DNA from: Candidatus Omnitrophota bacterium
Lineage (GTDB): Bacteria > Omnitrophota > Gorgyraeia > Zapsychrales > Fredricksoniimonadaceae
Direction: 5' to 3'
Assembly (NCBI GenBank): GCA_028865345.1
Contig: JAGWKL010000004.1
Span: forward strand, 79,422 to 143,421
Length of the DNA stretch: 64,000 bases
Under the pieces are notes generated by a model. It worked only from the letters and a program-made list of their open reading frames with translations. It was not told the DNA's origin and did no database searches. Both the position numbers and the translations under genes were made by a program. Shown one piece after another: positions 131-50,718 of the stretch. Within the stretch, counting starts at the first letter, position 1; the number at the start of each line of letters is the position of its first letter.

Positions 131-2314
131 TTGACTCACAATGTTTTTGCTATAAGATGTTCATCGATGAGATGGCCGGGTATGCCCAAATTAAGCAAAG
201 AAGCGTGGACGTTCATTGTACTGGCGACCGCCAGCGCTATCGTGCTTTTTAACTACGTCAATCTGGTCCCCCGCATCGGCAACAACTTTTTCTTTTCTAA
301 CAATGACCCCCAATTCCAAGACGAAAAAGAAATCTCCCATCTGTTTCATCGAAGGGATTCCCTGCTGGTCATCAACGCCTCCGGCCGCATCAGCTCTAAA
401 GCTTACATGCAGAAAATCCATGATTTGAGCACGTCTCTATCCAGAGTAGGGGGTGTTTCCGAGGTCAAAAGCATCGCCATGGGGCCGAGCAGCCTCGAGG
501 ACGCCCTTAAAGGCCCTCTATGGAGCCGCCTATTGATCGCCAAAGATCAAAAATCGACGAACATCATTATCTTTATTAATCCCGTTTATTCCCAAGCCAT
601 CATCCCTCCCATAAAAAAACTGGTCAGCCGATATTCTCAAAAAGGGTTCCGTCTGGTCATGTCAGGCCCTTCTTATATCGTAGATATGATCAGCCATAAT
701 CTGCTCAGAGACATCCGCGTCTTTACCGTTTTGGTCCTGGCCATCTTCGGCCTGGTCACTTTTTTCATCTTCCGTTCCTTCGGTATTCTTTTAGGGGCCG
801 TGGTCAGCTGTGTCAGTGCTTCCATGTGGACCCTGATGATCACCCATATGCTGCACATCACCATCGGCCTGTTGACGGCCAACCTGGCCACCATTGTCTT
901 TGTCATCACCCTGTCGCATATTATTTTCTTCACCTATAATTGGAAATACGTCCTATCCCTGGACGGCCCCCCGTCGCCCGTCGATGAGGCTATGCATCTG
1001 ACCTTTTCTCCCTCGTTTTGGAGCATGACGACGACAACACTCGGGTTTTTGAGCCTTCTTTTTGTCCCGGCCCAGCCTTTAAAGGAATTAGGCGCCGGCG
1101 GTGTTGTCGGTGCCTTGATGGCCATCAGCGTCGCTTACGGCGTTTATCCCGCCTTCCTGCGTTTGGTCCCTCCATCCATCTCGAAAAACAATGCTCTCGA
1201 CCGTTATCAGCAAAAAATGGAAAGGTCCCTTGAAAAAAGGAAGAACCAAACCGTCATAGGCATCTTTCTTTTGTTCTTCATTGCTTTGCCCGGGATATGG
1301 AGGGCCAATACCGATCCCAGCCTGTTTTCGTTCTTTGCCAAAAACACCTTGCTTAGAAAAAACCTGGTCTACATCGACCACCATGGAGGCAGCAGTCCTT
1401 TGATGCTGGTGGTCAGATCAGCTTCAGGCCAGAGACTTGATACCGACCGCGCTTACGACAAACTTTGGGGGCTGCAGAAGTCCCTGGAAAATTATGATCC
1501 GGTGGGAAGCGTCATTTCCCTGCCTGTACTGATGGCCCAGGCCAGAGAATCTTCTTTCCTGGCCAAGTTGCCGCCCTGGAGCGGTCTCTTGGACATCCTG
1601 CGTGCAAAACAATTCAACAACATTGCCAATAGTTTTATCACCACCGATGACAGTAAAGGTCTTTTTATATTAAGGATGAAGGAATCCGGACGAAAAATCC
1701 CAAGGCTCGAGGTGATCCATCGTATCAAAAAGATGGCCGTCGCCCACGGACTCATACCCGTGCTCGTCGGCGGGATCTATAGTTTACAAGGGCATTTGGC
1801 CAAGTTGGTTGCCTCCAGCATCATCTTCGGCCTGGGACAACTGATCCTCATCTTTTCCTTCATTGCGTGGATGGTGGCAAGATCATTGAAGATCGCGCTC
1901 GCCATAACTTTAAGCATTTGCATCATTCCGGTCATCGTCCTGGGAATGATAGGCTGGTTCGGCATTCCGGTGGATGTCATATCGGCCCCGGCCTGCAACA
2001 TCGCTCTGGGCTTGGGCATCGATTCCATGATCCATATGGTGAGGGCTTACCGGCGGCAAAAACACCCTGAACATAAAAATGCCGAAGCTTGGGACCGGAT
2101 CAGACATCGCTTTTGGCAGCCTGTACTGACCTTCACCTTGGTGATGGTCCTGGGCTTCGGTATTTTTATGTTCTCCGAATTCCCTTCGACCCAACGCTTC
2201 GGGGCAGCCGTTGTTTTCGGAACCCTCATCGCCGCCATGACCGCGCTGTTTATAATGCCGACTACAGCACAATTGCGAACCGGGATTTTCAAAAGGTCAT
2301 GGACCCGTTCTTAG
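131..2314 (+). CDS. RND-superfamily / MMPL-like exporter with two repeated 6-TM sterol-sensing-type halves
   Basis: 727-aa ORF with about 12 predicted TM helices in two blocks separated by a large soluble loop. Hydrophobic motifs typical of RND/MMPL permeases. True start may be an internal Met (MPKLSKEAW...) about 50 nt downstream. Confidence 0.6.
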   Translation: MTHNVFAIRCSSMRWPGMPKLSKEAWTFIVLATASAIVLFNYVNLVPRIGNNFFFSNNDPQFQDEKEISHLFHRRDSLLVINASGRISSKAYMQKIHDLSTSLSRVGGVSEVKSIAMGPSSLEDALKGPLWSRLLIAKDQKSTNIIIFINPVYSQAIIPPIKKLVSRYSQKGFRLVMSGPSYIVDMISHNLLRDIRVFTVLVLAIFGLVTFFIFRSFGILLGAVVSCVSASMWTLMITHMLHITIGLLTANLATIVFVITLSHIIFFTYNWKYVLSLDGPPSPVDEAMHLTFSPSFWSMTTTTLGFLSLLFVPAQPLKELGAGGVVGALMAISVAYGVYPAFLRLVPPSISKNNALDRYQQKMERSLEKRKNQTVIGIFLLFFIALPGIWRANTDPSLFSFFAKNTLLRKNLVYIDHHGGSSPLMLVVRSASGQRLDTDRAYDKLWGLQKSLENYDPVGSVISLPVLMAQARESSFLAKLPPWSGLLDILRAKQFNNIANSFITTDDSKGLFILRMKESGRKIPRLEVIHRIKKMAVAHGLIPVLVGGIYSLQGHLAKLVASSIIFGLGQLILIFSFIAWMVARSLKIALAITLSICIIPVIVLGMIGWFGIPVDVISAPACNIALGLGIDSMIHMVRAYRRQKHPEHKNAEAWDRIRHRFWQPVLTFTLVMVLGFGIFMFSEFPSTQRFGAAVVFGTLIAAMTALFIMPTTAQLRTGIFKRSWTRS

Positions 2315-3995: not shown

Positions 3996-4805
3996 TTATT
4001 CTGATGTTTGGGTAACAACTGCCGTCACATCTTTTTTTGTAAGGGCAAGATACATGACGCACACAAAAATAGAAGTCAAGAAAATCGCGCTGGTCACGAC
4101 CGTGCCCAAACCTAAGCCACCGTCACTGCGCGACTGTGAAAGATAGTCGCCGATGGAAGCCCCCAGGGGACGCGTCAAAATGTAGGCAAGCCAGAAAGCC
4201 AAGACCGCATTAGAACTCATGCGCTTATGTTCAGCGCCCAAATAAGCCTTAAAACCAAAGTGAACAACGGTTACAAATGCGATCAACGCGGCAAATATAA
4301 ACACCGATGTAAGATATCCCAAGTTAAATTTCTCAGCCGAGAGGTCGCCTGCCGCTGTACCAAGAGCGAATGTGAAAAGGATGGCAAGCCAGTAAAAAGC
4401 TTCCCGCCTTATGGTCACAATACTGTGCATGGATAATGTCCTCTCGATGGCAAACCAAACAGCAAAAGTAACCGCTAAAATAATGCTAAATACGATGGTG
4501 CTTGTCTCGAGAGGTACACCGAGCCTGTCCGTCAGGTTATCGGTTATTAATGTGCCGACGACGCTGATAAGCACCACCGCAAGCCAGTAAATCGACGGGA
4601 CATACCGCCTTGCCCTGAACTGAAAAAACAGCACAGCGATAAGCAACACGCTCATAATATAGCTTGTATTGATCAGTCCGAAATGCAGTGTCTCGTTGAG
4701 GTAATCGGCGGCAGTCTCCCCTACGGTCGTACACAAAATTTTAATGATCCAGAAATAAATCGTGACTTCAGGCACTTTATTGAGCATTTTTCGTCCATGA
4801 CTCAC
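3996..4805 (-). CDS. polytopic membrane protein with internal sequence duplication (uncharacterized membrane-anchored protein family)
   Basis: 269 aa with about 8 TM segments. Repeated motifs TVGETAADYLNETL, GTAAGDLSAEKFNLGYL and RPLGASIGDYLSQ. Its start overlaps the stop of the upstream RND::OMF gene by 4 nt. Confidence 0.5.
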   Translation of the reverse strand: MSHGRKMLNKVPEVTIYFWIIKILCTTVGETAADYLNETLHFGLINTSYIMSVLLIAVLFFQFRARRYVPSIYWLAVVLISVVGTLITDNLTDRLGVPLETSTIVFSIILAVTFAVWFAIERTLSMHSIVTIRREAFYWLAILFTFALGTAAGDLSAEKFNLGYLTSVFIFAALIAFVTVVHFGFKAYLGAEHKRMSSNAVLAFWLAYILTRPLGASIGDYLSQSRSDGGLGLGTVVTSAIFLTSIFVCVMYLALTKKDVTAVVTQTSE

Positions 4806-7800
4806 CCCGACACCTCCGTACTTGACTGTTTATAATGGTTCCAACCGCCTCCCAAAGCCTTGATCAGCTGTATTGTCCAAATAAACTTGGCATTTTTAAT
4901 CTCCGAGTACTTTAATTCCGCTTCCAAAGCCAAACGTTGGGCTTCCAAAACCCCCAAATAATTAATGACCCCTTGTTGGTAACTCTTGTTTGAAACCGCT
5001 AAATCTCCCTTGGCGGCCTCCATGATCCGCCCCTCTAAATCCTGTTGTTGATTATTTAAATGGATCTTCACCAGGGCGTCTTCGACTTCATGAAACGCAT
5101 CCAGGACCTTTTGCCGGTAATTGGCCACGGCCTGATCATATTTGGCCAAAACGCCGTTATAAGCGGATTTATAAACCTGATAATTCAGCGGAAAAGTTAT
5201 GTCCGGGCCGAACGAAGAAAACCTACTCCTCCAATCAAACAAAGAACGTAACTTGACGCTGGCGGTCCCGACTGAGCCAAGCAAGGTAACGACGGGAAAA
5301 AACGAAGCCTTGGCTTCACCGATCATGGCATTGGCCGCGGCCATCTGCCTTTCCGCCTCGGCGATGTCCGGACGGCGTTCCAAAAGCCCGGAAGGCATGC
5401 CCGGCGGTATAAACGGGGGCGAGGCGGTCAATGGACCGACGGAGAGGTCAAAATCAACCGGCGGTTTTCCGCATAAAATGGCCAGCGCATTTAAAAGTTC
5501 ATTTTCTTTCGAAACAACATCAATGACCGCCAATTGCGCCGACTTAAAGCCAATCGTCTGGCGCCTGACATCAAAAGATTTGATAATACCGGCCTTATAC
5601 TGCTCTTCCGTAATGGTCATCCCCTTTTTATCGACTTGTACGATTTTCTTCAGCAGGTTTTCTTCGTTCTTCAATTCCCTCAACAGGAAATAATCCCTGG
5701 CCACCTCGCTTGTCAGCGCCAATAAAACGGATTGAAAATCAGCTTCACTGGCTTGGGCCTGGTCTTGGGCCGCTTCTATAGATCGCCTGACCCTGCCCCA
5801 GAGGTCCAACTCATAACTGAACTCCAAAGGGATCGAATAAAAACCTTCGATATTATTAGCGCGCCCGAAGAATTTATTCTGGATGGTATCCAGGTTAGTA
5901 TAGCCGGGATCGAGTTCCAGATACGGAACAAGATTTGCTTGACTTAAACCCGCCGCGGCACGGGCCTGATTCACAGATTCAAAAGCCGCCTTTAAACCCT
6001 GGTTATGGAGCTTGGCCTGGTCCTCAAGATGGTCCAGTACGGGATCATGAAAAATCTTCCACCAAGGCCCTTTGGGCAAGGTGTCCTGGGGATTGGCTTT
6101 TTTCCAGGAAGCATCCGTGGTTTTCCATTTAACCGGCATTGTGACCTGTGGCCGATGGTATTTGGGGCCCATCAAGCAGCCATTGGCGGTTATCAAGACA
6201 CAGCATACAAGAACCAAGATTTTGGCGCCCGGTATTGCAGGCGGGGAAAGTTTTGATTTAAACCGGCCCAGTAAAATATACAAGGTAGGAATAACAAAAA
6301 GGGTCAGGAAGGTGCTGGTGATCATGCCGCCTATAACCGCAATCCCCAAAGGCCTGCGGCCCGCCCCGCCCATGCCGAAACCAATGGCAATCGGCATGGC
6401 CCCGGCGATGGTCGCCGTTACGGTCATCATGATCGGACGAAAGCGGATCAGGGCCGATCTATAGATGGCTTCCGGCACATTTTTACCTTTGGCGACCAAT
6501 TGATTCGCAAACTCCACCAATAAAATACCGTTTTTGGTGACCAGCCCCACCAGTAAAATCAGCCCGATCTCGCTGAACAAATTAATGCTCATGCCCGGAA
6601 TGCCGTAAAAATTAAACACCCATAAAAATCCAAAAGCACCGAAAACGGCCAAAGGCACGGTCAGAATAATGATAAAAGGGTCAATAAGATTCTCAAATTG
6701 CGAAGCCAGAACCATATAGACGATGAGGAGAGCAAAGCACAGGGTGAACATCATTTCCCGGTTGGACTGGATCAATTCCCTGGACTCCCCTGCCCACTCA
6801 TAACGGAAATCCGGCGGCAGATCTTTTTTAATCAACTGCTGCGCTTTCTGGATGGCCGTGCCCAAGGTCACATTCAAAGGAGAGCCCTCAATAATAGCAG
6901 ACCGCATACGGTTATAATGGGTGATGACGTTAGGGCCTGCCGTGATTTTATAGTTGGTCACATTGGACAGCGGGATCAGCTGCCCCTGATCATTCGGGAC
7001 ATAGATGCGGTCCAAGTCCATGGGGCTCAGCCGGTCGCGCTTTTCCAGCTGGGCAATGACCTTATACTGCCTGCCGGAGAGATTGACGGTACTTACGTCC
7101 ATGCCGCCAAAAAGCACCTGCAACGTACGGGCAATGGTTTCAGCGGAAACCCCTAAAGCGGCGGCGCGCTCGCGGTTGATCGTCAGATCTACCTGGGGTT
7201 TATTCAACTGAAATTCAGACCTCACGTCTTCCAGAAATCCTGCGGCCGACAATTGTCCGCTGATGCGCTGTGCATAGGTGTTGAGCCTGTTTAAATCCTC
7301 GTTTTCCAGGACCAATTGAAACGGCTGGGCCAGCGAATCTCCGATGGCCTGGGGGGTAAGGGGAAAAACGATCGCCCCCTCGATGTCCTGATATAATTTT
7401 AACGCCAGGCCTTTTTTACCCAGCAAGATGTCCCCGAGGTTGCGCTTGCGTTGCTCCTTCAGACGGACATAAGAAAGCCCCTGGGAACAGACGCCCGGCC
7501 CGTCGATGGGCAAAGCCACCGCGGTAAAATACCCTTGCACCTCGGGAATTTTTCTGATCATGCCTTCCATTTTCTTGACCATACGGTCGGTGTATGCGCA
7601 ACTCGAACCTTCCGGAGCAACGGCAATGCACAGAAACCTTCCCTTGTCCTCATCAGGCAAGAATTCATGCTCAAGGTTGAAATACAAAAGGACCGATAAA
7701 GCGATCACGCCCAACCCGATGACGATAATGAACAGCGGCCTCTTCAATGACCGGCGCAGCAAATCTTTATAAGAGGTTCTCAATCTGAAATATATCCGGT

Positions 7801-9313
7801 CAAACCAGGCATTGATCCAATGGCGGGAAGATTTCTCTCCTGACCTCAGAAAATGGGCCGAGAGCATGGGCGAAAGCGTCAAGGCCACAAATCCGGAAAT
7901 CAATACCGAACATGCAATCACGACGGCAAACTCAATAAACACCATTCCAGTCGTGCTGGTTTGGAACGCCAAAGGCAAAAAGATCACCGCCAGGACAAGG
8001 GTCGTGGAGATCACCGCAAACCCGATCTCCTTCATACCCAACACGGCTGCCCCCAAAGGTTTCATGCCTTGTTGAACATGCCGGTAAATGTTTTCCAAAA
8101 CAATGATGGAGTCATCCACCACCAGGCCTATGGCCAATACAAAGGCCAGCATCGTCACAATATTAATCGAATAGCCCATCCAATAAAGAATGGCAAAGGT
8201 AGCGATCAAACAAACGGGGATGGCGATCGAAGGAATGACCGTCAAACGCACGTTGTTCAAAAAGAAAAAAATGGTCAAAACCACCAGGACGATGGACAGC
8301 CCCAACGTGACCCAGACCTCATTGATGGAGCTCTCGACATAGGTGGACTCGTCATAGGGCACAGAAACCTTCACCCCCGCAGGCAGCCGCTTCTTCAAGC
8401 GCCGCAGCTCCTTTTTAACGGCTTCGGCCACCGCAATGGTATTGGCTTTGGACTGTTTGACGATCCCGAGGCCCACACAGGGCTTGGAATTATAGCGTGC
8501 AATGGAATGTTCATCTTCAACGCCGACCTGAGCATGCCCCACATCGCGCAAATAAACGGCCTTACCGCCTGCCTGTTTGACAACCAGATCATTGTATTGC
8601 CGGGGTGTTTTCAGCTGCCCCTGCGTCTGGATGGAAAACTCCCTCTGCGTCCCCTGAATATTGCCGCTGGGAAGTTCGACATTCTGGCTCCTTAAGGCCT
8701 CTTCGATGTCTGAAATTGTAACTCCCTTGGCCGCCATTTCCCCGGAATCCAACCAAAGGCGGATGGCAAAACGTTTCTCGCCGCCGAAGACAACAGCGCT
8801 GACACCGGGCAGGGATTCCAGAGGATCTTTTAACGTCTTCTCGGCAATGGAGGTCAGATCAAGGGTGGAAAATGAATCACTGTACAATGCGATCCATAAC
8901 ATGGGCTGCACATCCGCCCCTTGTTTTTCGATGGTCGGCCCCTGAATTTTTTCAGGCAAATCCCCACGGACCGAGGCCACACGGTCACGCACATCCTGAG
9001 CTGCTGTTTCGATGTTGCGCGAGGGTTCAAATTCAACCGTGATGATGCTGACCTGCTGGCGGTTTTGGCTGCTGATTTTACGGATACCTTCTATCGAATT
9101 GAGAGCCTCTTCGAGCGGATCCGTAATTTGGGTCTCGATGATCCCGGCGCCGGCACCCGGGTATACGGTCGTGACCTTGATAACCGTGGGAGTGACGTCG
9201 GGGAATTCACGGACGGCAAGCCGCGGCAGGTAAACCAACCCCATGAGGATCAGTCCCAAGCTTGCCATCGCGCACAGGACCGGGCGTCTTATGCTGATTT
9301 CCGATAATTTCAT
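4802..9313 (-). CDS. in-frame fusion: RND inner-membrane permease (AcrB/MdtB-like, about 1030 aa) plus NodT-family outer-membrane-factor lipoprotein (about 470 aa)
   Basis: The N-terminal about 1030 aa is a complete 12-TM RND permease ending ...IPTLYILLGRFKSK. Without a stop it continues into LSPPAIPGAKILVLVCCVLITANGC, a lipoprotein-type signal with lipobox Cys at about nt 6176-6178. The remainder is a full NodT/OMF domain ending ...LIKALGGGWNHYKQ. I translated the junction codon by codon and found no stop or ATG between the modules. Confidence 0.8.
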   Translation of the reverse strand: MKLSEISIRRPVLCAMASLGLILMGLVYLPRLAVREFPDVTPTVIKVTTVYPGAGAGIIETQITDPLEEALNSIEGIRKISSQNRQQVSIITVEFEPSRNIETAAQDVRDRVASVRGDLPEKIQGPTIEKQGADVQPMLWIALYSDSFSTLDLTSIAEKTLKDPLESLPGVSAVVFGGEKRFAIRLWLDSGEMAAKGVTISDIEEALRSQNVELPSGNIQGTQREFSIQTQGQLKTPRQYNDLVVKQAGGKAVYLRDVGHAQVGVEDEHSIARYNSKPCVGLGIVKQSKANTIAVAEAVKKELRRLKKRLPAGVKVSVPYDESTYVESSINEVWVTLGLSIVLVVLTIFFFLNNVRLTVIPSIAIPVCLIATFAILYWMGYSINIVTMLAFVLAIGLVVDDSIIVLENIYRHVQQGMKPLGAAVLGMKEIGFAVISTTLVLAVIFLPLAFQTSTTGMVFIEFAVVIACSVLISGFVALTLSPMLSAHFLRSGEKSSRHWINAWFDRIYFRLRTSYKDLLRRSLKRPLFIIVIGLGVIALSVLLYFNLEHEFLPDEDKGRFLCIAVAPEGSSCAYTDRMVKKMEGMIRKIPEVQGYFTAVALPIDGPGVCSQGLSYVRLKEQRKRNLGDILLGKKGLALKLYQDIEGAIVFPLTPQAIGDSLAQPFQLVLENEDLNRLNTYAQRISGQLSAAGFLEDVRSEFQLNKPQVDLTINRERAAALGVSAETIARTLQVLFGGMDVSTVNLSGRQYKVIAQLEKRDRLSPMDLDRIYVPNDQGQLIPLSNVTNYKITAGPNVITHYNRMRSAIIEGSPLNVTLGTAIQKAQQLIKKDLPPDFRYEWAGESRELIQSNREMMFTLCFALLIVYMVLASQFENLIDPFIIILTVPLAVFGAFGFLWVFNFYGIPGMSINLFSEIGLILLVGLVTKNGILLVEFANQLVAKGKNVPEAIYRSALIRFRPIMMTVTATIAGAMPIAIGFGMGGAGRRPLGIAVIGGMITSTFLTLFVIPTLYILLGRFKSKLSPPAIPGAKILVLVCCVLITANGCLMGPKYHRPQVTMPVKWKTTDASWKKANPQDTLPKGPWWKIFHDPVLDHLEDQAKLHNQGLKAAFESVNQARAAAGLSQANLVPYLELDPGYTNLDTIQNKFFGRANNIEGFYSIPLEFSYELDLWGRVRRSIEAAQDQAQASEADFQSVLLALTSEVARDYFLLRELKNEENLLKKIVQVDKKGMTITEEQYKAGIIKSFDVRRQTIGFKSAQLAVIDVVSKENELLNALAILCGKPPVDFDLSVGPLTASPPFIPPGMPSGLLERRPDIAEAERQMAAANAMIGEAKASFFPVVTLLGSVGTASVKLRSLFDWRSRFSSFGPDITFPLNYQVYKSAYNGVLAKYDQAVANYRQKVLDAFHEVEDALVKIHLNNQQQDLEGRIMEAAKGDLAVSNKSYQQGVINYLGVLEAQRLALEAELKYSEIKNAKFIWTIQLIKALGGGWNHYKQSSTEVSG

Positions 9314-10383
9314 TGATCTTGAAGGCGTACCCTTACTTTAGAGCCGGCGTGGACTTTTTGAAAACCCTCGGTAATCACGGTTTGGCCTTCCTGAAGGCCT
9401 TTCAAAATTTCAACAACTCCATTGACGTGCAACCCGCAATCAACGGGCGTGACGGCCACCGTCTGGTTGCCGCGGACCGTATACACAACGGTCTTGTTTC
9501 CTTTAAAAACAACCGCGTCTTCAGGGACAACAATGGCGTCGGGCCTCTCGTGCAATGTCAAACTAATCTCGGCAAACATCCCCTGCCTGAGCCTGCCGTC
9601 GGGGTTGGAAACCTCGGCCGTAATCAAAATGGTGCGCGTGGATTCATCCACCGTCGGATCAATAAAAACAATTGTCCCCTGGAAACGGTCCCGGGGATAT
9701 GCATCCACCTTAAAGTCAACCGGCGCTCCATTCTTAATTTGGCTGATATATCTTTCAGGCACGCGGAAATCAACCTTCATGGAGTCTTGATTGACCAAAA
9801 AACCCAGGCTGTCACCTTGGGAAATAAATTGCCCGTCGTTCACCAACCTCTGTCCCATGACGCCGGCAAAGGGGGCGCTGACAACGGTGCTGTCGAAAGC
9901 GGCCCTTGCCTCCCCCACCACGGCCTGGTTCATTTTGACCTGATTGGCGGCTTGATCAAATTCCAGGCGGGACACCCCGCCGTCTTTAAGCAATTCTTGA
10001 TAACGGTTGAGCGTGACTTGGGCCAGGGACAAAGTAAGTTCGGCCTCGATCAAAGCGGCCTTAGCCTTTTCCTGGTTAAACAACACCAAGGTCTCTCCTT
10101 TTACAACCTTTTGGCCTGACGTGAAGGCGACCTTTGCGATTGTGCCATCAACTTTCGATTTAATTTCTACGGCATCCCGGGCCCGCAAAGTCCCCGCCAA
10201 ATTCATGTTATCGGCGATAGTTTGCCGCGTCACCTTAATGCCGACCACGGGCATCGTCAATGTGTTTAAATCGATATTTTCACTATTTTGTTGCTCTGTT
10301 TCTTGTATGGCCAAACGGACGAGCAAAACGGCCGCGATCAACACAATGGCGGCAACCAATACTCTATGGAACCGGAATCTCAT
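9310..10383 (-). CDS. RND efflux membrane fusion protein (periplasmic adaptor, HlyD/AcrA family)
   Basis: N-terminal TM anchor, coiled-coil hairpin, lipoyl and beta-barrel motifs (VSAPFAGVMG..., GMFAEISL). ATGA overlaps with both flanking RND genes. Confidence 0.85.
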   Translation of the reverse strand: MRFRFHRVLVAAIVLIAAVLLVRLAIQETEQQNSENIDLNTLTMPVVGIKVTRQTIADNMNLAGTLRARDAVEIKSKVDGTIAKVAFTSGQKVVKGETLVLFNQEKAKAALIEAELTLSLAQVTLNRYQELLKDGGVSRLEFDQAANQVKMNQAVVGEARAAFDSTVVSAPFAGVMGQRLVNDGQFISQGDSLGFLVNQDSMKVDFRVPERYISQIKNGAPVDFKVDAYPRDRFQGTIVFIDPTVDESTRTILITAEVSNPDGRLRQGMFAEISLTLHERPDAIVVPEDAVVFKGNKTVVYTVRGNQTVAVTPVDCGLHVNGVVEILKGLQEGQTVITEGFQKVHAGSKVRVRLQDQ

Positions 10384-13300
10384 ACGGACACGTTCTTATG
10401 GTGAGTAAGATAATAAAATACCGGCATGACAATCAGAGAAAAAAACATGGAACCCATAAGGCCGCTGATCATGGCTATGGAAAAGGGCTGCAGGACTTCG
10501 GCCCCATGCCCCAGATTCAAAGCCATCGGCAAAAATCCCGCCATGGCCGACAGGTTGGTGATCAAAACCGGCCTAAACCGCAATTGACAAGCCGCGTGAA
10601 TGGACGCCATAAGAGACCTGCCTTCCCGGCGAAAACGTTCAACAAAATCGATGACCAGGATGCCGTTATTAACAACGATCCCCATTACAGCTATCATACC
10701 AGTAAAAGAAGAAACATCAAATTCAGTCCTGGTAAAAAATAACCCCAGGATGACAAAACTCGCGGAGCACACCGTTCCGGCAAATACGGCCAGCGCGGTA
10801 CGGTAGGACTCGAAAATAAACAGCAGTAAAGCCAATATGAGAACGATGGAAATACCCAACACCCCCAGCAATTCCTTAAATGATGTTTGCTGGCTTGCAT
10901 AGGTGCCGCCCAATTCAATGGTAAAACCGTTTCTTGGAATACCGGCAATGGCCTTTTTGACGTCCTTAATAACCTCCCCAAGAGATCGGCCGGATATTTC
11001 AGCATTGACATTGACGACGATCGATCCATTCATGTGATGGATTTCCGTGTTTTGTTCGACGAGTGAATATTGCGCGATCCTGCCCAACGGTAAAACCCCG
11101 CCGTTAGGGGTATAAATAGGGACATCCTTGAGCTTGGAGATGTTCGAACGGTAATCCCCCCCGTAAAACTCCCTTATAGGGATGCTTTCGATGCCTTTTT
11201 GCACCTTGGAGACGATCTCGCCATAAATCCCCAATTGGGAATAATGGTACACTTCATCAAGCCCCAGCCCCAACAGCGACGCCTGGGGTTGATCGACGGT
11301 GACATGGATTTCTTTTTGGGGCGGCGGCATATTGATAAGCACGCTGTCCAATCCTTTGATCTTCTCAAGTCGGGCTTGTACATTTTTTGCCGCCGCCATC
11401 AATGTGTCGAAATCATTTCCTAAAATGCTGACAACGACCGGCTTGCCTGCCCCGGATAAATCTCCCAGCCTGTCCGACAGAATTTGGTGAAAATCAGTGT
11501 TCAAATAAGGGAATTGCGCGGCCAGCTTCTTTTTTAAGATAGCCATGACCTTAAATGTGGAAATTTTTCTGTTTTCCTTGAGGTAGATGACCGTCTCACC
11601 GATCGTGGGCGCGGAATAAGGCGTTCCCATGGCCGTACCTGTCTTGCGGATATACATCCTGACCGAAGGCAAGCTCTGGATGACCTTTTCCACCTTATCC
11701 ATGAGCGCGTCCGTCGCCTCAATGGAATAGCCGGCGGGAGCTATGTAATCAAAAACAATGTTGCCTTCGTCCCCTTCGGGTAAAAACCCGTTGTGCAGTT
11801 TCAAAAAAACAAAAACGCACGCCAGCCCGAGGACAATCGAACCCATGACGCATAGATACTTACGCCTGAGGGCCAAGCGCAGGAATTTTAAATACCTCTC
11901 TTTTAAAGTCCTAAAAAACTTTTTTTCCTCGTGTTCGGGCTCCTTGCCCCGATAATTCTCAATGAAATATTTAATCAAGACCGGGATGACAAAGGCCGCC
12001 ATGAACAGGGAAACAATGATGGTCGAAGCCAGGGTGATGGCCAGGGGCCTGAAAAACATGCCTGAGAGGCCGGTGAGGATATTTAAAGGAATAAAAATGA
12101 TGATGCTCACCATCGTGGCCCACACGGTGATGGGAAGGATGTAGGCCAGGGAATCGGCCAGCGGCTGGCCGCTTTTCTTCTGCCTTTTAAAATGAACGTA
12201 ATTCTCTGTGACCACAATGGCGTTGTCCGCGATAATGCCGATGGCCGCCGACAGCCCTCCTAAGGTCATGATATTGACCGTCATCCCCAGACATTTGAGG
12301 ACGAGGAACTCGATCACGATAACGACCGGTAAAACGCACATGATGGGCAAGGCATATCTAAAGCCGTTCATCACAAAATAAACGATCATCAAAATGATAA
12401 CAACCGCAATCAGGATATCGGATAAAATCCCCTGGATGGACGTGCGTACAAAATCGGAAAGGTCCCATTTGACGATATGCAGCTTTCCGTTGAATTCCTT
12501 GGTCGTTTCCGCGAGTTTCCGGTCCAGGGCCATGGAAACCTTCAATCCGTCCGCGTTCAGTTGTTTTTCCACGTCGATAAAAAGCCCCTTGTGGCCGTTG
12601 ACGCTCACGATCCTGCGCACCGGACTATGGGCGTCCTCTATCGTGGCAATATCTTTGAGCATCAGCGGCTTGCCCATGCGGGTGGCCACCACAATGTCGC
12701 CTATATCTTTAAGATTGGAGAGTTTGTTGCCGGCAATCACAAAGAACGCGGTTTTTCCCTTCACCATCTGTCCCACAAAGGAAACCATGTTGGCATCTGA
12801 AACCGCTGTATTGACGGCTACAGGATCAAGATTATACTCGATGAGTTTGCGGGGGTTTAATTTGATCCATATCTCCGGCTGTTGACCACCGATGACTTGC
12901 AGACCATAAAGCCCGTCGATGCCGATCAGCTTTGGGATGACCGAGTAGCGGACCGCCTCATAAAGCTGTTTCAAGTTGAGCTGATCAGACCAGAACCCAT
13001 ACTCCGACATGGGAAAAGCGCTGGTATTCATCCGGGTTATTTGAATATCGGTATTTGCGGGCAGTTGACCCCGTACCTGGTTTATCTTATTCTGGGTCAA
13101 CTGGAAATCTTGGGTCAGATCAGCTCCCCATTTCAAATAGACATCAATGGTGGAAGTCCCGCGTTCCGAAACGGAAACGACCCTTCTGACGTCCGGAACG
13201 GTCTTGAGGACTTCTTCCAGGGGACGGGTGACGTTGATCTCGGTTTCCTGCAAAGACGCAAAACCGATGTCCGCGATCACCTGAAAACGGGGAAAATCGC

Positions 13301-13421
13301 CGTTGGGAAAAACATCTTTAGGCAGCTGGGTGTATACCCACCCGCCGGTGGCCGTCAGGACGATGAGGGTAAAAATAATGGCGATATGATTGGTGTCAAG
13401 CCATTTTACGAACTGTCTCAT
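10380..13421 (-). CDS. RND efflux permease (AcrB/CzcA superfamily), 1013 aa
   Basis: 12 TM helices in two repeats and large periplasmic loops. Conserved RND motifs (GLSAAIGIIADNAIVVTEN). 4-nt overlaps with the upstream OMF and downstream MFP genes. Confidence 0.9.
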   Translation of the reverse strand: MRQFVKWLDTNHIAIIFTLIVLTATGGWVYTQLPKDVFPNGDFPRFQVIADIGFASLQETEINVTRPLEEVLKTVPDVRRVVSVSERGTSTIDVYLKWGADLTQDFQLTQNKINQVRGQLPANTDIQITRMNTSAFPMSEYGFWSDQLNLKQLYEAVRYSVIPKLIGIDGLYGLQVIGGQQPEIWIKLNPRKLIEYNLDPVAVNTAVSDANMVSFVGQMVKGKTAFFVIAGNKLSNLKDIGDIVVATRMGKPLMLKDIATIEDAHSPVRRIVSVNGHKGLFIDVEKQLNADGLKVSMALDRKLAETTKEFNGKLHIVKWDLSDFVRTSIQGILSDILIAVVIILMIVYFVMNGFRYALPIMCVLPVVIVIEFLVLKCLGMTVNIMTLGGLSAAIGIIADNAIVVTENYVHFKRQKKSGQPLADSLAYILPITVWATMVSIIIFIPLNILTGLSGMFFRPLAITLASTIIVSLFMAAFVIPVLIKYFIENYRGKEPEHEEKKFFRTLKERYLKFLRLALRRKYLCVMGSIVLGLACVFVFLKLHNGFLPEGDEGNIVFDYIAPAGYSIEATDALMDKVEKVIQSLPSVRMYIRKTGTAMGTPYSAPTIGETVIYLKENRKISTFKVMAILKKKLAAQFPYLNTDFHQILSDRLGDLSGAGKPVVVSILGNDFDTLMAAAKNVQARLEKIKGLDSVLINMPPPQKEIHVTVDQPQASLLGLGLDEVYHYSQLGIYGEIVSKVQKGIESIPIREFYGGDYRSNISKLKDVPIYTPNGGVLPLGRIAQYSLVEQNTEIHHMNGSIVVNVNAEISGRSLGEVIKDVKKAIAGIPRNGFTIELGGTYASQQTSFKELLGVLGISIVLILALLLFIFESYRTALAVFAGTVCSASFVILGLFFTRTEFDVSSFTGMIAVMGIVVNNGILVIDFVERFRREGRSLMASIHAACQLRFRPVLITNLSAMAGFLPMALNLGHGAEVLQPFSIAMISGLMGSMFFSLIVMPVFYYLTHHKNVSV

Positions 13422-14665
13422 GGCCGGTTGCCCTCGATGACGGCCGCCAGTTCGGCCTTCTTGGCCAGGAAATTATACTGGGCGTCGTAGGACTGGTCCA
13501 CCGCGGTCAGATAATCCGAAAAGGCGCTCAACAGATCGATCTCTTTTATTTTGCCCTGCCGGTAATAGGCCCGTGCCGTTTTGATGCCGGCTTGGGCGTT
13601 TTTAAGATTTTCCATCGTGGCCCTGTACACACCCCGCAGACTGGCCAGATCTCCGGTCATCTGTTCTATCCTGACCTTCAATTTTCTCTGATCGTCTTTA
13701 AATAATTTTTCCTGGTATTCATAACCGTATTTCAGGCTTTTTTCCTCATTGGCCTTTTGGCCGAAATCAAAAATATCGAAATTCAAGGACAGATAACTCC
13801 TGTATTCCTCCACGTTGGGATCGACCGTATTGACGTTGTGTTCCAGGCCCAATTGAACGGTCGGCAAGTAATAAAGCCTGCTTTGTTTGAACATCTCCTT
13901 GGCCGTATCGACGTTGACTTTGTCCAACCGCGACTGCTGCAGGACGGAATAATCTCCGGACCAGGACGGCAAGGAGCTCATGTCCGGCGCATCCTTGAGG
14001 GAAAAGTCCCTTTGCGTGTAGGAAGAGTTCATCAGAGAATTCAATGCCAGCAGCACATCTTTGATTTCGCTGTCGATATTGTTCAAAGAGATATTCAGAG
14101 ACTGGAATTGGACCCGTGCCCTGTCTAAATCAAAGGCCGCGTCCACGCCCTTAGACTGCAGTTGTTTGATCTCCCGGATGTGGGACTGAAAAAGCTCCAG
14201 GACGTTGACATATTCCTTTCTTTTTTCCAAAAGGACGTAAAGCCTGTCATAATCTTGGGTAACGTTCTTTAATAGTTCGCTGCGGGCGATGGACAGGACC
14301 AATTTATTTTTCGTTACATCCAGCCTCCCCAGGGCCGGATAATCGGTTAATATTTTCTGCAGGTCCCATGAAAAAGCGGCACCCATCCTGGTTTCGAAAC
14401 CGTGTGTGCGCTTTAAATCGGAGCGGTCGCTGAACTGGATATTGTCCGGCTGATAATAAGCGGTCAGCTGCCCCAAAAGCGCGCTTCTTTCTTTACGCCA
14501 GGAATAAACGCTGGACTTGATCAGGTCCTCATAGGCCGCGATCAAGCTGCTGTTCTTGAGCGCCAGGGCCTTGCAGTCTCCCAGGGAGACTGCAAAGGCC
14601 TGGCTGGAATGGAGGGTCAATAACACAAATACAACGAGGCTTAAAAAAAATCCACATTTCTTCAT
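13418..14665 (-). CDS. outer membrane efflux protein (TolC/OMF family) with signal peptide
   Basis: Signal peptide MKKCGFFLSLVVFVLLTLHSSQAFA followed by a two-repeat OMF architecture with coiled-coil segments. Confidence 0.8.
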   Translation of the reverse strand: MKKCGFFLSLVVFVLLTLHSSQAFAVSLGDCKALALKNSSLIAAYEDLIKSSVYSWRKERSALLGQLTAYYQPDNIQFSDRSDLKRTHGFETRMGAAFSWDLQKILTDYPALGRLDVTKNKLVLSIARSELLKNVTQDYDRLYVLLEKRKEYVNVLELFQSHIREIKQLQSKGVDAAFDLDRARVQFQSLNISLNNIDSEIKDVLLALNSLMNSSYTQRDFSLKDAPDMSSLPSWSGDYSVLQQSRLDKVNVDTAKEMFKQSRLYYLPTVQLGLEHNVNTVDPNVEEYRSYLSLNFDIFDFGQKANEEKSLKYGYEYQEKLFKDDQRKLKVRIEQMTGDLASLRGVYRATMENLKNAQAGIKTARAYYRQGKIKEIDLLSAFSDYLTAVDQSYDAQYNFLAKKAELAAVIEGNRP

Positions 14666-18023: not shown

Positions 18024-20666
18024 CTATTCTTTTTCCGCCATGGGCAGGGTGATGGTCACCATAAAACCTTTCGGGGACAAATTCTCCGCTTCCACCTCGC
18101 CCTCATTCAATTGCACGAACCGGCGGGCGATGGACAACCCCAGTCCCAGGCCGCCTTTCCTGGTCTTGGCCCCCCGATAAAATTTATCGAAAATCTTGGC
18201 CAGGGTCTGTTTGGAAATGCCTTCCCCCTGGTCAATGACGCTGATCCTGATCTTTTGGTCGATCACACGGACATGGATGTCGATGTCCAGGCCCTCGGGG
18301 CCGTGCACCAGGGCATTATGGACGATATTTTTCAACGCCTGTGTGATCATATAGAAATCCGCATTCACATACACAGGACCCTGCGGACAATCTACATGGA
18401 TGCGCTTTTCATCCTTGGACGTCCCCACCTGCTTAAGGGCGTGGGCCACGATGTCCTTGACTTCGCACCAGGCAAAATTGGGACTTAGGTTGCCGACATC
18501 CAGCTTGGTCAGATCCAGCACCGCATCCACGCCGCTGGTCAGGCGAAGGCAGGCCAGCCGGCATTCATCCAAAAGCTCCATGGCATCCTTGGGCCACTGA
18601 TGAAACAAGATCAGGGCGTCCAGATAACCGGAAATGATCGTCAGCGGCGTCTTGAGCTCATGGGACAAATTATCAAGAAGCGCGCTTTGCAGATTTTGCG
18701 TGTCTTCCTTCATCTTGGCTTCACGGGAGATCTTCAGCAGCTGGTCCTTTTCCAGCATCACCGTCATAAGCGCCGTGAATGATTCCAATAATGTCCTCTG
18801 GGCCAAATCCAAAGGCCTTTCCTTTAAAAGCTTGATGACCACAATGGCCCTCACCTGGCCCGATGACATTAAAGGCAGGTACATCAAGGGCTGCTGGGGC
18901 AGCGTGTCCGAAAAACGGCCCGCGGCCTTTTTATTGGCCACCACCCACTGGACCAAACCTTTTTGGTTGGGTGTCATATCAATAGGGTCCCCCAACGGAT
19001 TGGCGAACAGCGGCTGCTCGCTCTCGTCGACCATAAAGACGCTGCTATGGCACTGCAGCAACAGGTTGATTTGGGCTGTCGCCAGGCGCATGGCCTGGGC
19101 GATATCGGTGCTGAGCGCCAGGGCCCTGGTCAACTCATACAGGGATTCGGAACGTTGGCGCTGCTTCTGCTCTATTTCCTTTTGGCGGCGCAGTTTCGAG
19201 GTGACAAATCCCATCATCAAGGCTGTTATGAAAAACATGCCGAGTACGCCGATGTCATAGGTGGTCCTCAGATGAAGCGCAAACTTAGGAGGAATGAACA
19301 AATAATCCCAGGCAAAGGCGCTTAAAGCGGCCAGCATAAAGGCCGCGCTGCGGCCCAGGAAAGAACCGCTCAAGACAACGGTCAGCAAATATAAAAGCCC
19401 CAGCACCTCGTAGCCCGTCCAGGGGGCCAGCAGCATGTTCACGATGGTCGCAATGACAAACATCAGGAAACTCAAGCCATATTCACGGGGTCTTGGCCTC
19501 ATCAAGAATTCATTGGGTTTGGAAGGAAAGTTCTTTTCCGCGGCCGACATGCGCACCATATGCACGTCTATCTGTCCGCTTAAAGCCACCAGGCGGTCCG
19601 CCACCGTCGGGATCCCCAAAAAACGCTGCCATCTGGTCTCCGACGATTTTCCGAAAATAATTTGGGTCACGTTTTCCTTATTGGCCACATCCACGATCAC
19701 CTGGGCCAGGTCATCCCCGACCCGGTGGATGATCTCCGCCCCCAGCTGCCGGGCCAGGGTCAAATTCTTCATCAGGCGTTCTTTATGCTCTTCGGTAAGC
19801 GGCGCGGAACCTTCCACGTGCAGGGCGATCCAGGAGGCATCGAGCATCCCTGCCCAGCGGCGGGTCATGCGGATCAATGATTCCGAAAAAGGCGTAATAC
19901 CTACAGCCACCAGAATGCGTTCCCCGCTTTTAGAAGGGCCTGAAAGGCCCTTGGCCAGCATCAGCGAGCGCAGGTTGCGGTTGACATGGGCCGTGGTCAG
20001 GCGGAGAGCCATTTCCCTTAAGGCCGTGAGGTTTTCCGTCTTAAAAAAGTTGACCGCGGCCGCCTGAGCCTGGTCAGGGACATACACCTTGCCTTCGGCC
20101 AGGCGCTGGTGCAAGGCCTGAGGTGAAAGGTCGACCAGCGTGATTTCGGAAGCTTCGTCCAGGATGGTGTCGGGAACGGTCTCACCGACGGCAATGCGGG
20201 TGACCGCCAGGATGTCCTCCCGGCGGCTGTCCACATGCTGCACGTTCAGGGTGGTGAACACATCGATGTCCGCGGCCAGGACCTCCAAAACGTCCTGATA
20301 ACGTTTGGGATGACGGCTGCCCGGGGCATTGGTATGGGCAAGCTCATCGACGAGAACCAACTGCGGATGGCGCTTAAGGATCTCATCGATGTCCATCTCT
20401 TCGATGGTAATGCCCCGATAATTGACTTTCTTTAAAGGGATTTGCTCCAGGCCCTGCAGGAGCGCCCGGGTCTCGGGCCGGCCATGGGTCATGACAACGC
20501 CTACCAGCACCCGGAAACCCTCCGCCTGGCGCTGGCGCGCCTCCTGGAGCATGGCGTAGGTCTTGCCGACGCCGGGGCACATGCCGAAAAAAATCTTGAG
20601 TTTGCCGTGGTGGTCTTCTTCGGCTTTAAATCTCGCTAACAGCGCGTCCGGATCAGGGCGTTCCAT
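18024..20666 (-). CDS. kdpD: KdpD osmosensitive K+ channel sensor histidine kinase
   Basis: N-terminal KdpD domain with Walker A (GMCPGVGKTYAM), USP-like domain, 4-TM block, GAF-like region, HisKA (LSHELKTPLT) and HATPase. Confidence 0.9.
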   Translation of the reverse strand: MERPDPDALLARFKAEEDHHGKLKIFFGMCPGVGKTYAMLQEARQRQAEGFRVLVGVVMTHGRPETRALLQGLEQIPLKKVNYRGITIEEMDIDEILKRHPQLVLVDELAHTNAPGSRHPKRYQDVLEVLAADIDVFTTLNVQHVDSRREDILAVTRIAVGETVPDTILDEASEITLVDLSPQALHQRLAEGKVYVPDQAQAAAVNFFKTENLTALREMALRLTTAHVNRNLRSLMLAKGLSGPSKSGERILVAVGITPFSESLIRMTRRWAGMLDASWIALHVEGSAPLTEEHKERLMKNLTLARQLGAEIIHRVGDDLAQVIVDVANKENVTQIIFGKSSETRWQRFLGIPTVADRLVALSGQIDVHMVRMSAAEKNFPSKPNEFLMRPRPREYGLSFLMFVIATIVNMLLAPWTGYEVLGLLYLLTVVLSGSFLGRSAAFMLAALSAFAWDYLFIPPKFALHLRTTYDIGVLGMFFITALMMGFVTSKLRRQKEIEQKQRQRSESLYELTRALALSTDIAQAMRLATAQINLLLQCHSSVFMVDESEQPLFANPLGDPIDMTPNQKGLVQWVVANKKAAGRFSDTLPQQPLMYLPLMSSGQVRAIVVIKLLKERPLDLAQRTLLESFTALMTVMLEKDQLLKISREAKMKEDTQNLQSALLDNLSHELKTPLTIISGYLDALILFHQWPKDAMELLDECRLACLRLTSGVDAVLDLTKLDVGNLSPNFAWCEVKDIVAHALKQVGTSKDEKRIHVDCPQGPVYVNADFYMITQALKNIVHNALVHGPEGLDIDIHVRVIDQKIRISVIDQGEGISKQTLAKIFDKFYRGAKTRKGGLGLGLSIARRFVQLNEGEVEAENLSPKGFMVTITLPMAEKE

Positions 20667-30092: not shown

Positions 30093-30680
30093 TCAAGGTC
30101 TCTTCATTGACATATGATCGAGAGCGATGTTGACCTGCAGAACGTTGACGACCGGCTCTCCGAGAAGGTCTAAGAACCGGCCTTGAGTGTAGCGATTGAC
30201 TATTTGCCGGACTTGGGTTTTGGACATTCCCCGTACACGGGCGACACGCGCCAGTTGATACCGGGCCGCAGCCAGACTGATGTCAGGGTCTAACCCGCTG
30301 CCGGAAGAGGTCACTAAATCCACCGGAATAGGGGCCTTGTTGCCCGGATCAGCGGCTTTTAAAGCTGCGATCCGGCCCTTCACCTCGTCCAGTAAAGCAG
30401 GATTGGTAGGGCCAAAATTTGATCCTGTGGAAGAAGATGCATTGTAAGCCGGGATAGTGGCCGATATCCGGCCCCAGAAATATTTCGGGTCGCTGAAATC
30501 CTGCCCTATCAAGGTGGAGCCTAATATTTTACCATTGCTCGAATAGATCAAACTGCCTTCGGCCTGTTTGTGGAACAATGTCTGGGCAATGCCGGTGACG
30601 ACCAGCGGATATATGATGCCGGTCAATACCGAAAACAAGATGAACGAAACGATGGTTGGTCTAAGCTGAGAAAAAAACAT
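30093..30680 (-). CDS. kdpC: potassium-transporting ATPase subunit C
   Basis: N-terminal TM and conserved KdpC motifs (SGSGLDPDIS, QVNIALD). Confidence 0.9.
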   Translation of the reverse strand: MFFSQLRPTIVSFILFSVLTGIIYPLVVTGIAQTLFHKQAEGSLIYSSNGKILGSTLIGQDFSDPKYFWGRISATIPAYNASSSTGSNFGPTNPALLDEVKGRIAALKAADPGNKAPIPVDLVTSSGSGLDPDISLAAARYQLARVARVRGMSKTQVRQIVNRYTQGRFLDLLGEPVVNVLQVNIALDHMSMKRP

Positions 30681-30697
30681 TTTTTATTGCCTCCTCG

Positions 30698-32779: not shown

Positions 32780-32782
32780 CCC

Positions 32783-41144: not shown

Positions 41145-41921
41145 TTAATCTAACAGTTCCCTGGCGGCATCAAGGAAATCACCAGGCGCAGTATATTCCA
41201 AAAACCTGTCCACCCCTTGCTTTTCTCCGATCTTTTGGGCGATGACGGTTTTTTCAGGGCCTTTCTCGGTATAGAGGATGCATTTGACATCGCGGGTCTT
41301 GGCCATATTTTTAAGTTTGGCGATCACAATATCCCCTGAAATATCCACCAACCCCAATTTAATCAAAGCAATGTCAGGGACCGTAGCGGCAATGCGCTCG
41401 ATGCCGTCCACCCCGTTGCGCGCGGGATTGACCGTATAGCCGGCGCTTAAGAAAACCCCGCCGATCTGGTTTAAGATCTCCTGGTTGTTCTCAACAACGC
41501 AAACCTTTCTGGTTTCGCTTGCTCCCGATGAGGTCATTTTAACCCCCTCGCCGGCATGCCTGCCGAGGATGGCTTCGACCTCCTTGAGCAGGTCATCGAT
41601 CTCAAAAGGTTTGGACATAAACCCGTCGATGTTAAACTGTTTGAAGAGCTGTTCCATGTTGGCGCGGGCCGTCAGGACCAGGACCGGGTATTTAGGCTTG
41701 TCGTTCTCGCAGATCCTCTGGTAGAATTCCAAGCCTCCCATCTTGGGCATGTTCATGTCCAGAATAATGAGGTCGGGTTTGACCGTTTTTAATTGCTCCA
41801 GCCCTTCCAGGCCGTTGCCTGCGATGAGGACCTTGTACTGTTTTGTTTCCAGTGTCATTTTGACCATGACCTGTAAATTGACCTCGTCGTCTATCACCAA
41901 AATCGTTTTTGGGCCGCTCAT
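41145..41921 (-). CDS. response regulator with N-terminal receiver plus C-terminal degenerate receiver-like domain
   Basis: First REC is canonical (ILVIDDE, LIILDMNMP, SKP). The second domain (KVCVVENN...IALIKLGLVD) has lost the acidic pocket. Start reassigned to the internal Met (MSGPKTILVIDD), giving an ATGA overlap with the upstream gene; the ORF track extends it to 42035. Confidence 0.75.
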   Translation of the reverse strand: MSGPKTILVIDDEVNLQVMVKMTLETKQYKVLIAGNGLEGLEQLKTVKPDLIILDMNMPKMGGLEFYQRICENDKPKYPVLVLTARANMEQLFKQFNIDGFMSKPFEIDDLLKEVEAILGRHAGEGVKMTSSGASETRKVCVVENNQEILNQIGGVFLSAGYTVNPARNGVDGIERIAATVPDIALIKLGLVDISGDIVIAKLKNMAKTRDVKCILYTEKGPEKTVIAQKIGEKQGVDRFLEYTAPGDFLDAARELLD

Positions 41922-43557: not shown

Positions 43558-43570
43558 AGACGATCCCCCC

Positions 43571-44146: not shown

Positions 44147-44151
44147 CGTTC

Positions 44152-44568: not shown

Positions 44569-44679
44569 TTCCTCTTGATTACGTATATCACGTATCTCCT
44601 ATTTCTCTGTATTCTCCACAATTAAATATACTTGATGCCCGCGGTTTTGTCAAGGGGACCAGGGAAGAAAGGAAAAGCG

Positions 44680-46068: not shown

Positions 46069-46069
46069 A

Positions 46070-48079: not shown

Positions 48080-48082
48080 AGG

Positions 48083-48628: not shown

Positions 48629-48632
48629 ATCT

Positions 48633-50705: not shown

Positions 50706-50718
50706 AAATCACTTCCTC

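Follow-up and report, generated by a model that had tools for sequence, protein, structure and literature searches.

An RND permease fused in frame to a NodT-type outer-membrane factor, with a predicted internal lipoprotein signal at the junction

We found that a single gene of a Candidatus Omnitrophota bacterium joins two components of a tripartite pump that belong to different membranes. The gene lies in a 64,000-nucleotide stretch of DNA (assembly GCA_028865345.1, contig JAGWKL010000004.1, positions 79,422 to 143,421 of the forward strand; hereafter the window, whose numbering is used throughout), where the listing of open reading frames (ORFs) has one frame on the minus strand, 4802..9313, that begins with ATG and encodes 1503 amino acids (aa). 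A complete AcrB-like permease of the RND family makes up its first 1016 residues and a complete OprM-like channel, or outer-membrane factor (OMF), its last 458; the roughly 30 residues between the two modules are the OMF's own lipoprotein signal peptide, minus only the initiator methionine. Comparison with homologues indicates that this fusion, RND::OMF, is real and under selection. We suggest, with a probability of about 0.7, that its product is a polyprotein precursor of two of the three parts of the pump, from which the OMF would be lipidated and released by signal peptidase II.

Two complete modules in one reading frame

The permease half (residues 1-1016; 6266..9313, minus strand) was delimited by Pfam, by structure alignments and by a hydrophobicity scan. 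Pfam ACR_tran (PF00873) covers residues 4-1015 (E = 1e-291; profile positions 2-1020 of 1021), and alignments with the structures of AcrB, MexB, MdtF and CmeB run from end to end (E = 1e-141 to 1e-162), with limits of 5-1031 for AcrB and 2-1028 for MexB. A Kyte-Doolittle scan, which is crude beside a dedicated topology predictor as a count of transmembrane segments, places 12 hydrophobic segments at about residues 11-29, 333-480 (five), 527-545 and 855-1008 (five), a 1+5 and 1+5 arrangement, and an extra, thirteenth segment at residues 1032-1050. Candidate proton-relay motifs are present as DDSI at 400-403 (D400/D401), KNGI at 927-930 (K927) and RFRPIMMT at 957-964 (R957, T964); we take these to correspond to AcrB D407, D408, K940, R971 and T978, an equation made by recognising the motifs rather than from a printed alignment. 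By Pfam the fused permease is an RND permease, though it scores under the thresholds of the curated NCBIfam subfamilies (780 against 940 bits for TIGR00915, HAE1, and 985 against 1250 for NF033617). A function in pumping is what these features suggest.

The OMF half (residues 1046-1503 plus the stop codon at 4802-4804; 4802..6178, minus strand) is equally complete. Two stretches starting at residue 1093 match Pfam OEP (PF02321; E = 4e-39), and the NCBIfam model of NodT lipoproteins, TIGR01845 (outer_NodT), covers residues 1042-1490 over profile positions 6-460 of 460, with 358.8 bits against a cut-off of 210. In alignments with the solved NodT-family structures OprM (1wp1), OprJ, OprN, CmeC, CusC and MtrE (1wp1, 5azs, 5iuy, 4mt4, 3pik and 4mt0), the whole mature protein is matched at 26-30% identity; OprM aligns over 1-453 (E = 9e-50), through the C-terminus, and no linker has been added. 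In all six comparisons Cys1046 of the fusion falls on residue 1 of the mature protein. It is followed by the N-terminal motif C-x-x-G-P-x-Y-x-R-P, as in NodT-family OMFs, and the N-terminal tail that links the Cys to the first OMF helix does not exceed that of free OprM in length. Cys1046 is positionally homologous to the acylated N-terminal Cys of the six solved OMFs, and we predict that it is acylated here as well; the title of PDB entry 4y1k, "palmitoylated OprM", refers to OprM acylated at residue 1.

An AlphaFold2 (AF2) model of residues 1001-1503 agrees with this division (mean pLDDT 78.5, about 90 in the OMF core). It runs from a helix that is the end of the twelfth transmembrane segment, through an 8-residue loop, into a second helix that corresponds to the hydrophobic h-region of a signal peptide (model residues 28-45), and then through about 38 low-confidence coil residues into a confident OMF fold. 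Foldseek matched the model to OprJ, OprN, OprM and CusC with target-normalised TM-scores of 0.82-0.85; with CmeC included, the range is 0.78-0.85 and the E-values are 1e-25 to 1e-27. The predicted fold is that of OMFs, whose protomers each have four beta-strands and long helices in pairs.

Between the modules the translation reads ...LYILLGRFKSKLSPPAIPGAKILVLVCCVLITANGCLMGPKYHRP...; the permease terminates in ...LYILLGRFKSK, and the frame continues free of stops via LSPPAIPGAKILVLVCCVLITANGC into LMGPKYHRP... and on to the C-terminal end, ALGGGWNHYKQSSTEVSG, and its stop codon. From the translation and the alignment of fusions described below, residues 1017-1031 (RFKSKLSPPAIPGAK; 6221..6265, minus strand) are at once the cytoplasmic tail of the permease and, with four K/R and no D/E, the positive n-region of the internal signal. 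Residues 1032-1045 (ILVLVCCVLITANG; 6179..6220, minus strand), delimited by the charge-to-Cys spacing and the AF2 model, hold the h-region and positions -3 to -1 of the lipobox, A-N-G, so that 14 uncharged residues separate the last charge from Cys1046. The Cys codon is TGC at 6176-6178 (minus strand); by alignment it encodes the predicted diacylglyceryl-modified residue, at +1 of a predicted signal peptidase II site, G1045/C1046. The signal is thus internal: it occupies residues 1017-1045, behind 1016 residues and 12 transmembrane segments, rather than the N-terminus of the precursor. A sequence-only reading of this DNA had described an in-frame junction of an RND permease and a NodT OMF lipoprotein that lacks a stop codon or ATG, a positive n-region and hydrophobic core, a lipobox-like Cys at exactly this codon and a complete OMF domain up to the end of the protein, and the ORF, Pfam and TIGR01845 results agree with it on each of these points. 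It had also named a separate start and ribosome-binding site for the OMF as something to look for. Between the end of the permease and Cys1046 the window sequence has no stop codon, ATG or GTG; the lone in-frame alternative start is a TTG at codon 1033, within the hydrophobic stretch, and no Shine-Dalgarno-like motif was seen upstream of it.

Conservation of the junction across fusions

The fusion is not confined to one genome. A search for homologues returned more than 70 further clusters, made at 90% identity, whose members are full-length fusions of 1475-1562 aa with 47-61% identity and 98-100% coverage; most are from Candidatus Omnitrophica, and they outrank all unfused RND proteins. The identical protein is recorded on 4 contigs (NCBI entry, Candidatus Omnitrophica metagenome-assembled genome, or MAG). 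When residues 760-1503 were searched exhaustively against 50%-identity representatives, about 17 more full-length fusions at 26-48% identity appeared among the best 150 matches, which also include junction-spanning fragments, one of them (P0122) 76% identical and starting ILLGRFKTK.... The distant fusions come from Verrucomicrobiota, Kiritimatiellota, Acidobacteriota and Bacteroidota, and their named carriers include Bryobacteraceae (Acidobacteriota), Muribaculaceae and Prevotella. Two are isolates with genomes of complete size, Sphingobacterium sp. SYP-B4668 (5.4 Mb contig; fusion protein WP_270090608.1) and Kiritimatiellota bacterium B12222 (4.43 Mb contig; fusion protein WFB35000.1). A profile search of genome contigs with the junction and OMF alignment yielded three further Verrucomicrobial fusions (L013, L017, L035) as well as unfused comparators (L041, L044, L056); no Omnitrophota were among the matches listed. 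Two full-length domain matches in one frame, together with a junction that recurs in independent assemblies, place the fusion far beyond chance.

We aligned 80 full-length fusions with MAFFT and found a Cys in the junction column of 73, which we call lipobox-type. Around this Cys (73/73), the neighbouring positions follow the pattern of a lipoprotein signal: Gly stands at -1 in 71 of the 73, -2 is most often S (30), T (15), N (10) or A (8), and -3 is most often L (42), F (10) or A (7). Asp at +2 does not occur (0/73). The 20 residues preceding the hydrophobic stretch carry on average 5.0 K/R against 0.6 D/E, and the uncharged stretch before the Cys has a median length of 16 (range 13-23), its sequence being otherwise variable. 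The same measure gave a median of 14 in 61 unfused NodT signal peptides, taken from ordinary unfused loci among the matches listed in the profile search. A strict rule that combines n-region, h-region and a [GAS]-C lipobox is satisfied by 117 of 130 full-length fusions.

A second type of junction has no Cys. Seven fusions at 42-45% identity (P0099 to P0119), together with P0155 and the Verrucomicrobial L017, keep similar n- and h-regions that are followed by Ala-x-Ala-like signal peptidase I sites: ...PVRA/ED, ...PARA/EE, ...LASA/EE, ...PAKA/ES and ...ASANA/G, where the slash marks the cut. L056, a Verrucomicrobial orthologue in which the genes are separate, carries an ordinary signal peptidase I signal, MRFLIFLTFIATSASA/Q (...TSASA/Q). 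Comparison of the two indicates that the signal type of the free OMF, cleavage motif included, was retained in the fusion. The members of this Ala-x-Ala lineage are P0099, P0101, P0103, P0111, P0116, P0117, P0119 and P0155, with loci L083 and L084 (8001-12581); their 42-45% identity was measured in the RND half, their gene context is MarR-MFP-fusion (MFP, the periplasmic adaptor protein), and one member lies on a 4.39 Mb JGI contig.

A predicted processing route and its alternatives

How could one polypeptide supply parts for both membranes? We infer a route from the conservation of the junction and from AcrB topology. The C-terminus of AcrB-type permeases is cytoplasmic, so the hydrophobic stretch that follows it would insert with its N-terminus inside and its C-terminus outside, as a thirteenth span, and the OMF domain would be exported through Sec. 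Lgt would then add diacylglycerol to Cys1046, and signal peptidase II (LspA) would cut between Gly1045 and Cys1046, leaving the signal on the RND protein as an additional C-terminal helix. The released lipoprotein would be N-acylated, taken to the outer membrane by Lol, and form a normal OMF trimer. The benefit may be obligatory 1:1 co-expression, which would fit the RND3:OMF3 stoichiometry of the pump. The host lineage appears to be equipped for such a route: LptE proteins encoded on the contigs of two fused homologues have canonical signals (...LLAGC/G and ...LVAGC/G) and the window encodes TonB-dependent receptors, which together point to diderms with outer-membrane lipoproteins of their own. 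Among the larger ORFs of the 64-kb window that were scanned with Pfam, none was an lgt, lspA or lol gene. A strict-pattern scan of the window returned no N-terminal lipoproteins, a result that is uninformative.

Several observations weigh against release by signal peptidase II. The lipobox in the window, A-N-G-C, is atypical: the common consensus is [LVI][ASTVI][GAS]C, and Gly at -1 fits it, while Asn at -2 (shared by 10 of the 73 family members) and Ala at -3 (shared by 7) lie outside it. In the literature searched, nothing came up on signal peptidase II cutting at an internal signal after 12 transmembrane helices, and the cleavage, lipidation and outer-membrane location that we propose for the fused OMF are all read from conservation. 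The operon in the window also includes a separate OMF gene, which means that the fused OMF is not the sole available channel. Finally, two Verrucomicrobial fusions, L013 (...LSTTRAG/VLTVGPDY) and L046 (...TNSIEAG/TLTIGPDY), lack both a Cys and a clean Ala-x-Ala site at about residue 1075. Cleavage may therefore not be universal, and these two may be uncleaved or differently processed variants. The L046 frame (5755-7605) covers the C-terminal end of the RND protein together with the junction and the OMF, but a stop upstream leaves only 617 aa open; the RND part may contain a frameshift or an assembly error, or the fusion may be in decay.

The main alternative to our proposal leaves the hydrophobic stretch in place as a permanent thirteenth transmembrane helix, with the OMF tethered to the permease, so that the chain sits in both membranes or the OMF never enters the outer membrane. 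The sequence-only reading had listed such a tether beside cleavage at the lipobox and loss of a stop codon. The continuous frame, a cleavage that is itself predicted, the helix that AF2 places after a short loop and the few Verrucomicrobial fusions lacking an obvious cleavage motif would all suit it. A plain anchor, however, gives no role to a Cys and a preceding Gly that are kept while the flanking sequence varies, and the hydrophobic stretch, at 13-16 residues, is of the length of cleavable signal peptides rather than of membrane anchors. Nor does the chain seem long enough. The distance from the inner membrane to the body of the OMF is about 150 Angstrom, a rough estimate from published pump dimensions, and the approximately 38 disordered residues, in a tail no longer than that of free OprM, would have to bridge it, which would take a fully extended chain to its limit or past it, again as a rough estimate. 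Non-lipoprotein lineages, moreover, hold signal peptidase I motifs at the same place. These points, motif conservation, h-region length, the missing linker and the signal peptidase I motifs, favour cleavage, and we think a tether unlikely. Its most literal form, a single-chain bridge of the envelope with 13 inner-membrane helices and an OMF beta-barrel, three chains per pump, is distinctly improbable in our judgment; in such an uncut bridge the conserved Cys would serve lipidation without cleavage, or another role. Of the three possibilities in the sequence-only reading, release at the internal lipobox is the one favoured, by the invariant Cys, its alignment with six OMFs and the signal peptidase I sites of other lineages.

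A cut could also be the work of signal peptidase I or of some other protease of the envelope, with the Cys put to other use or lipidated without being the scissile residue. The non-canonical residues at -2 and -3 of A-N-G-C and the Ala-x-Ala-type sites that sister lineages clearly use would be in keeping with this. Yet in six solved NodT OMFs the acylated residue 1 is the exact counterpart of the Cys in the alignment, [GAS]-C at the end of the h-region is the defining signature of signal peptidase II and is kept in 117 of 130 fusions, and the match to TIGR01845, a lipoprotein subfamily, exceeds its cut-off from residue 1042; a protease other than LspA is accordingly quite improbable. Separate translation of the OMF from a start at the junction, with the read-through fusion minor or irrelevant, has in its favour that a minority of fusions hold a relic-like Met at the head of the n-region (...SGSMAKLILI, ...RSSMVKIILIV). 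In the window, where there is neither ATG nor GTG, the TTG at codon 1033 would give a signal that lacks its n-region, and ribosomes translating the RND half must read through anyway because they meet no stop codon. We hold internal initiation to be very improbable. We considered, and rejected, a hidden GTG start at a "VK" (Val-Lys) that many homologues have at the head of the n-region: the Val codon is GTC or GTT in L085, L086 and L087, and the window has GCC-AAA (Ala) there.

There is next to no chance, finally, that the junction is a sequencing or assembly artefact or a recent inactivating mutation in one genome. The source is a MAG, and where RND and OMF genes lie in one frame a few codons apart, as in L041 and L044, one wrong base could be enough to imitate a fusion. 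Against this, the same in-frame junction is found in independent samples at 76% (the P0122 fragment), 61% and lower identity, isolate genomes of complete size carry fusions, and both modules have full domain matches, with the proton-relay motifs of the RND half kept. We regard sequencing error and pseudogene formation as ruled out by the conservation of the junction in independent assemblies and isolate genomes.

Gene context, origin and relation to known systems

The fusion gene is the fourth of a five-gene string on the minus strand (14665 down to 3996) joined by 4-nucleotide ATGA or GTGA overlaps: a TolC-like OMF, an RND permease, an MFP, the fusion and a DUF347 membrane protein. The MFP (9310..10383; 357 aa) matches Pfam HlyD_D23/HlyD_3 and TIGR01730 (RND_mfp; 263.9 bits against a cut-off of 94.9), and its stop codon overlaps the ATG of the fusion by 4 nucleotides (ATGA). 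Downstream, the DUF347 gene (3996..4805; four repeats, Pfam DUF347 E = 2e-64) has a GTG start that overlaps the stop codon of the fusion (GTGA) and a GGAGG motif upstream. The TolC-like OMF (13418-14665, minus strand; 415 aa, Pfam OEP), with a signal peptidase I-type signal (...SSQAFA/VS), and the second, divergent RND permease (10380-13421, minus strand; 1013 aa, Pfam ACR_tran), which shares 25% identity with the permease half of the fusion, sit directly upstream of the lone MFP and have no MFP of their own. In the five homologous loci examined, these two genes were not found beside the fusions, which makes it probable that the pair lies outside the conserved unit. The DUF347 gene was likewise not beside the fusions in L081 and L085-L087.

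What does recur is the MFP, immediately upstream of the fusion in five of five homologous loci and usually preceded by MarR. Two genes, MFP and RND::OMF, form the conserved unit, and a MarR regulator often precedes them. Within 6-8 kb of the fusion, the five homologous loci have no other OEP gene, and unfused orthologues have the order MarR-MFP-RND-OMF; on both grounds, the fused OMF must act as the channel of the pump. The unfused orthologues of the RND half share 53-56% identity with it. In one of them, an Omnitrophica MAG (L088), with the order MarR-MFP-RND-OMF, the RND protein ends ...LLNKRKRKNK at its stop codon, and after a 17-nucleotide gap the OMF starts with MKSILMSFMVFLFLTGC/A; another unfused locus (L089) reads TetR-MFP-RND-OMF.

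These arrangements suggest how the fusion arose. In two Opitutales loci (L041 and L044, at about 6100-6135) the RND stop codon and the ATG of an OMF lipoprotein share a frame and stand 4-5 codons apart, so one substitution would fuse the genes with the signal peptide in frame. Loss of a stop codon, which the sequence-only reading had offered as one explanation of the junction, is therefore likely as its evolutionary origin; as an artefact or a recent accident it does not hold, given fusions at 26-61% identity in several phyla. The fused RND proteins of Omnitrophica are nearer to unfused RND proteins than to the Ala-x-Ala-type fusions, from which we infer that fusion or fission probably occurred several times.

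Elsewhere in the window, an MMPL-family ORF (131-2314, plus strand; 727 aa, TTG start) is a third RND-superfamily protein within 15 kb. An ORF of 3088 aa with a GTG start (20709-29975, minus strand) has no Pfam match at E <= 1e-5 and interrupts a Kdp locus of otherwise standard make-up, lying between kdpD (18024-20666) and kdpC/kdpB/kdpA (30093-34528). A dense run of response-regulator and histidine-kinase genes extends through 41145-52707 (minus strand), followed there by a YfiR/HmsC-like gene and two adjacent TonB-receptor Plug ORFs, the second of which (50719-52707) matches the receptor beta-barrel as well.

Set beside MexAB-OprM and AcrAB-TolC, the system in Omnitrophota has all three components at full length, an MFP, an AcrB/MexB-like permease and an OprM-like channel, and the fused loci retain the MarR-MFP-RND-OMF order of unfused Omnitrophica orthologues, a MexAB-OprM-type order. 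It differs in that permease and channel share one ORF, with the signal of the channel internal, after 12 transmembrane helices. In OprM, OprJ, OprN, CusC, CmeC and MtrE, the signal peptide is instead N-terminal on a separate precursor, and NodT OMFs usually have L-[AS]-[GA]-C where the fusion in the window has A-N-G-C. The architecture had been called unusual for RND systems on first reading, which is right against textbook pumps; in sequence databases it is not rare.

The closest parallel known to us in the anatomy of the junction is FbcH of Bradyrhizobium japonicum, a cytochrome b-c1 polyprotein that, in work by Thony-Meyer and colleagues from about 1989-1991, was reportedly found to be cut at the internal signal peptide of cytochrome c1. 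Both proteins join a polytopic inner-membrane protein with a cytoplasmic C-terminus in frame to a partner, via the signal of that partner, and both combine stoichiometric subunits of one complex. The FbcH type of junction is found here, and L088 has the same pieces as two genes 17 nucleotides apart; the cleavage itself is a prediction. FbcH differs in that its cut is made by signal peptidase I and its products stay in one membrane, whereas RND::OMF has a signal peptidase II-type site and a product destined for the other membrane. Within the RND superfamily, SecDF of Thermus thermophilus is a natural fusion (PMC8277102). There, too, two partners in one membrane machine, encoded by neighbouring genes, have become a single polypeptide. 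SecD and SecF, however, lie in one membrane and stay joined; since the halves of RND::OMF belong to different membranes, it needs either a separation step or an unprecedented tether.

The portion of a 2021 Chem Rev review of tripartite systems that we could search mentions no such fusion. The literature searched, whose coverage is incomplete enough that an earlier description is possible, describes no natural RND-OMF fusion and no internal lipobox processing. As far as we have found, RND::OMF is widespread and apparently uncharacterised. Fusions are named "RND permease subunit" or "outer membrane subunit", at JGI sometimes both, and such inconsistent naming in annotation pipelines conceals the fusion.

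Gram-negative bacteria owe their intrinsic multidrug resistance mainly to tripartite RND pumps, and, to our knowledge, the assembly of these pumps has always been described as that of three proteins made separately. If the proposed processing is correct, the fusions would follow a new biogenesis route, in which transporter and channel are co-translated 1:1 and then split by the lipoprotein-processing machinery. As far as we have found, it would also be the first internal signal following a polytopic protein to be described as a substrate of signal peptidase II, and the range of substrates known for Lgt and LspA would grow with it. Signal predictors in current use expect N-terminal signals, and predictors oriented in this way may overlook internal sites. 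Cultured carriers exist in Sphingobacterium sp. SYP-B4668 and Kiritimatiellota bacterium B12222, and gut Bacteroidota (Prevotella, Muribaculaceae) share the RND::OMF architecture.

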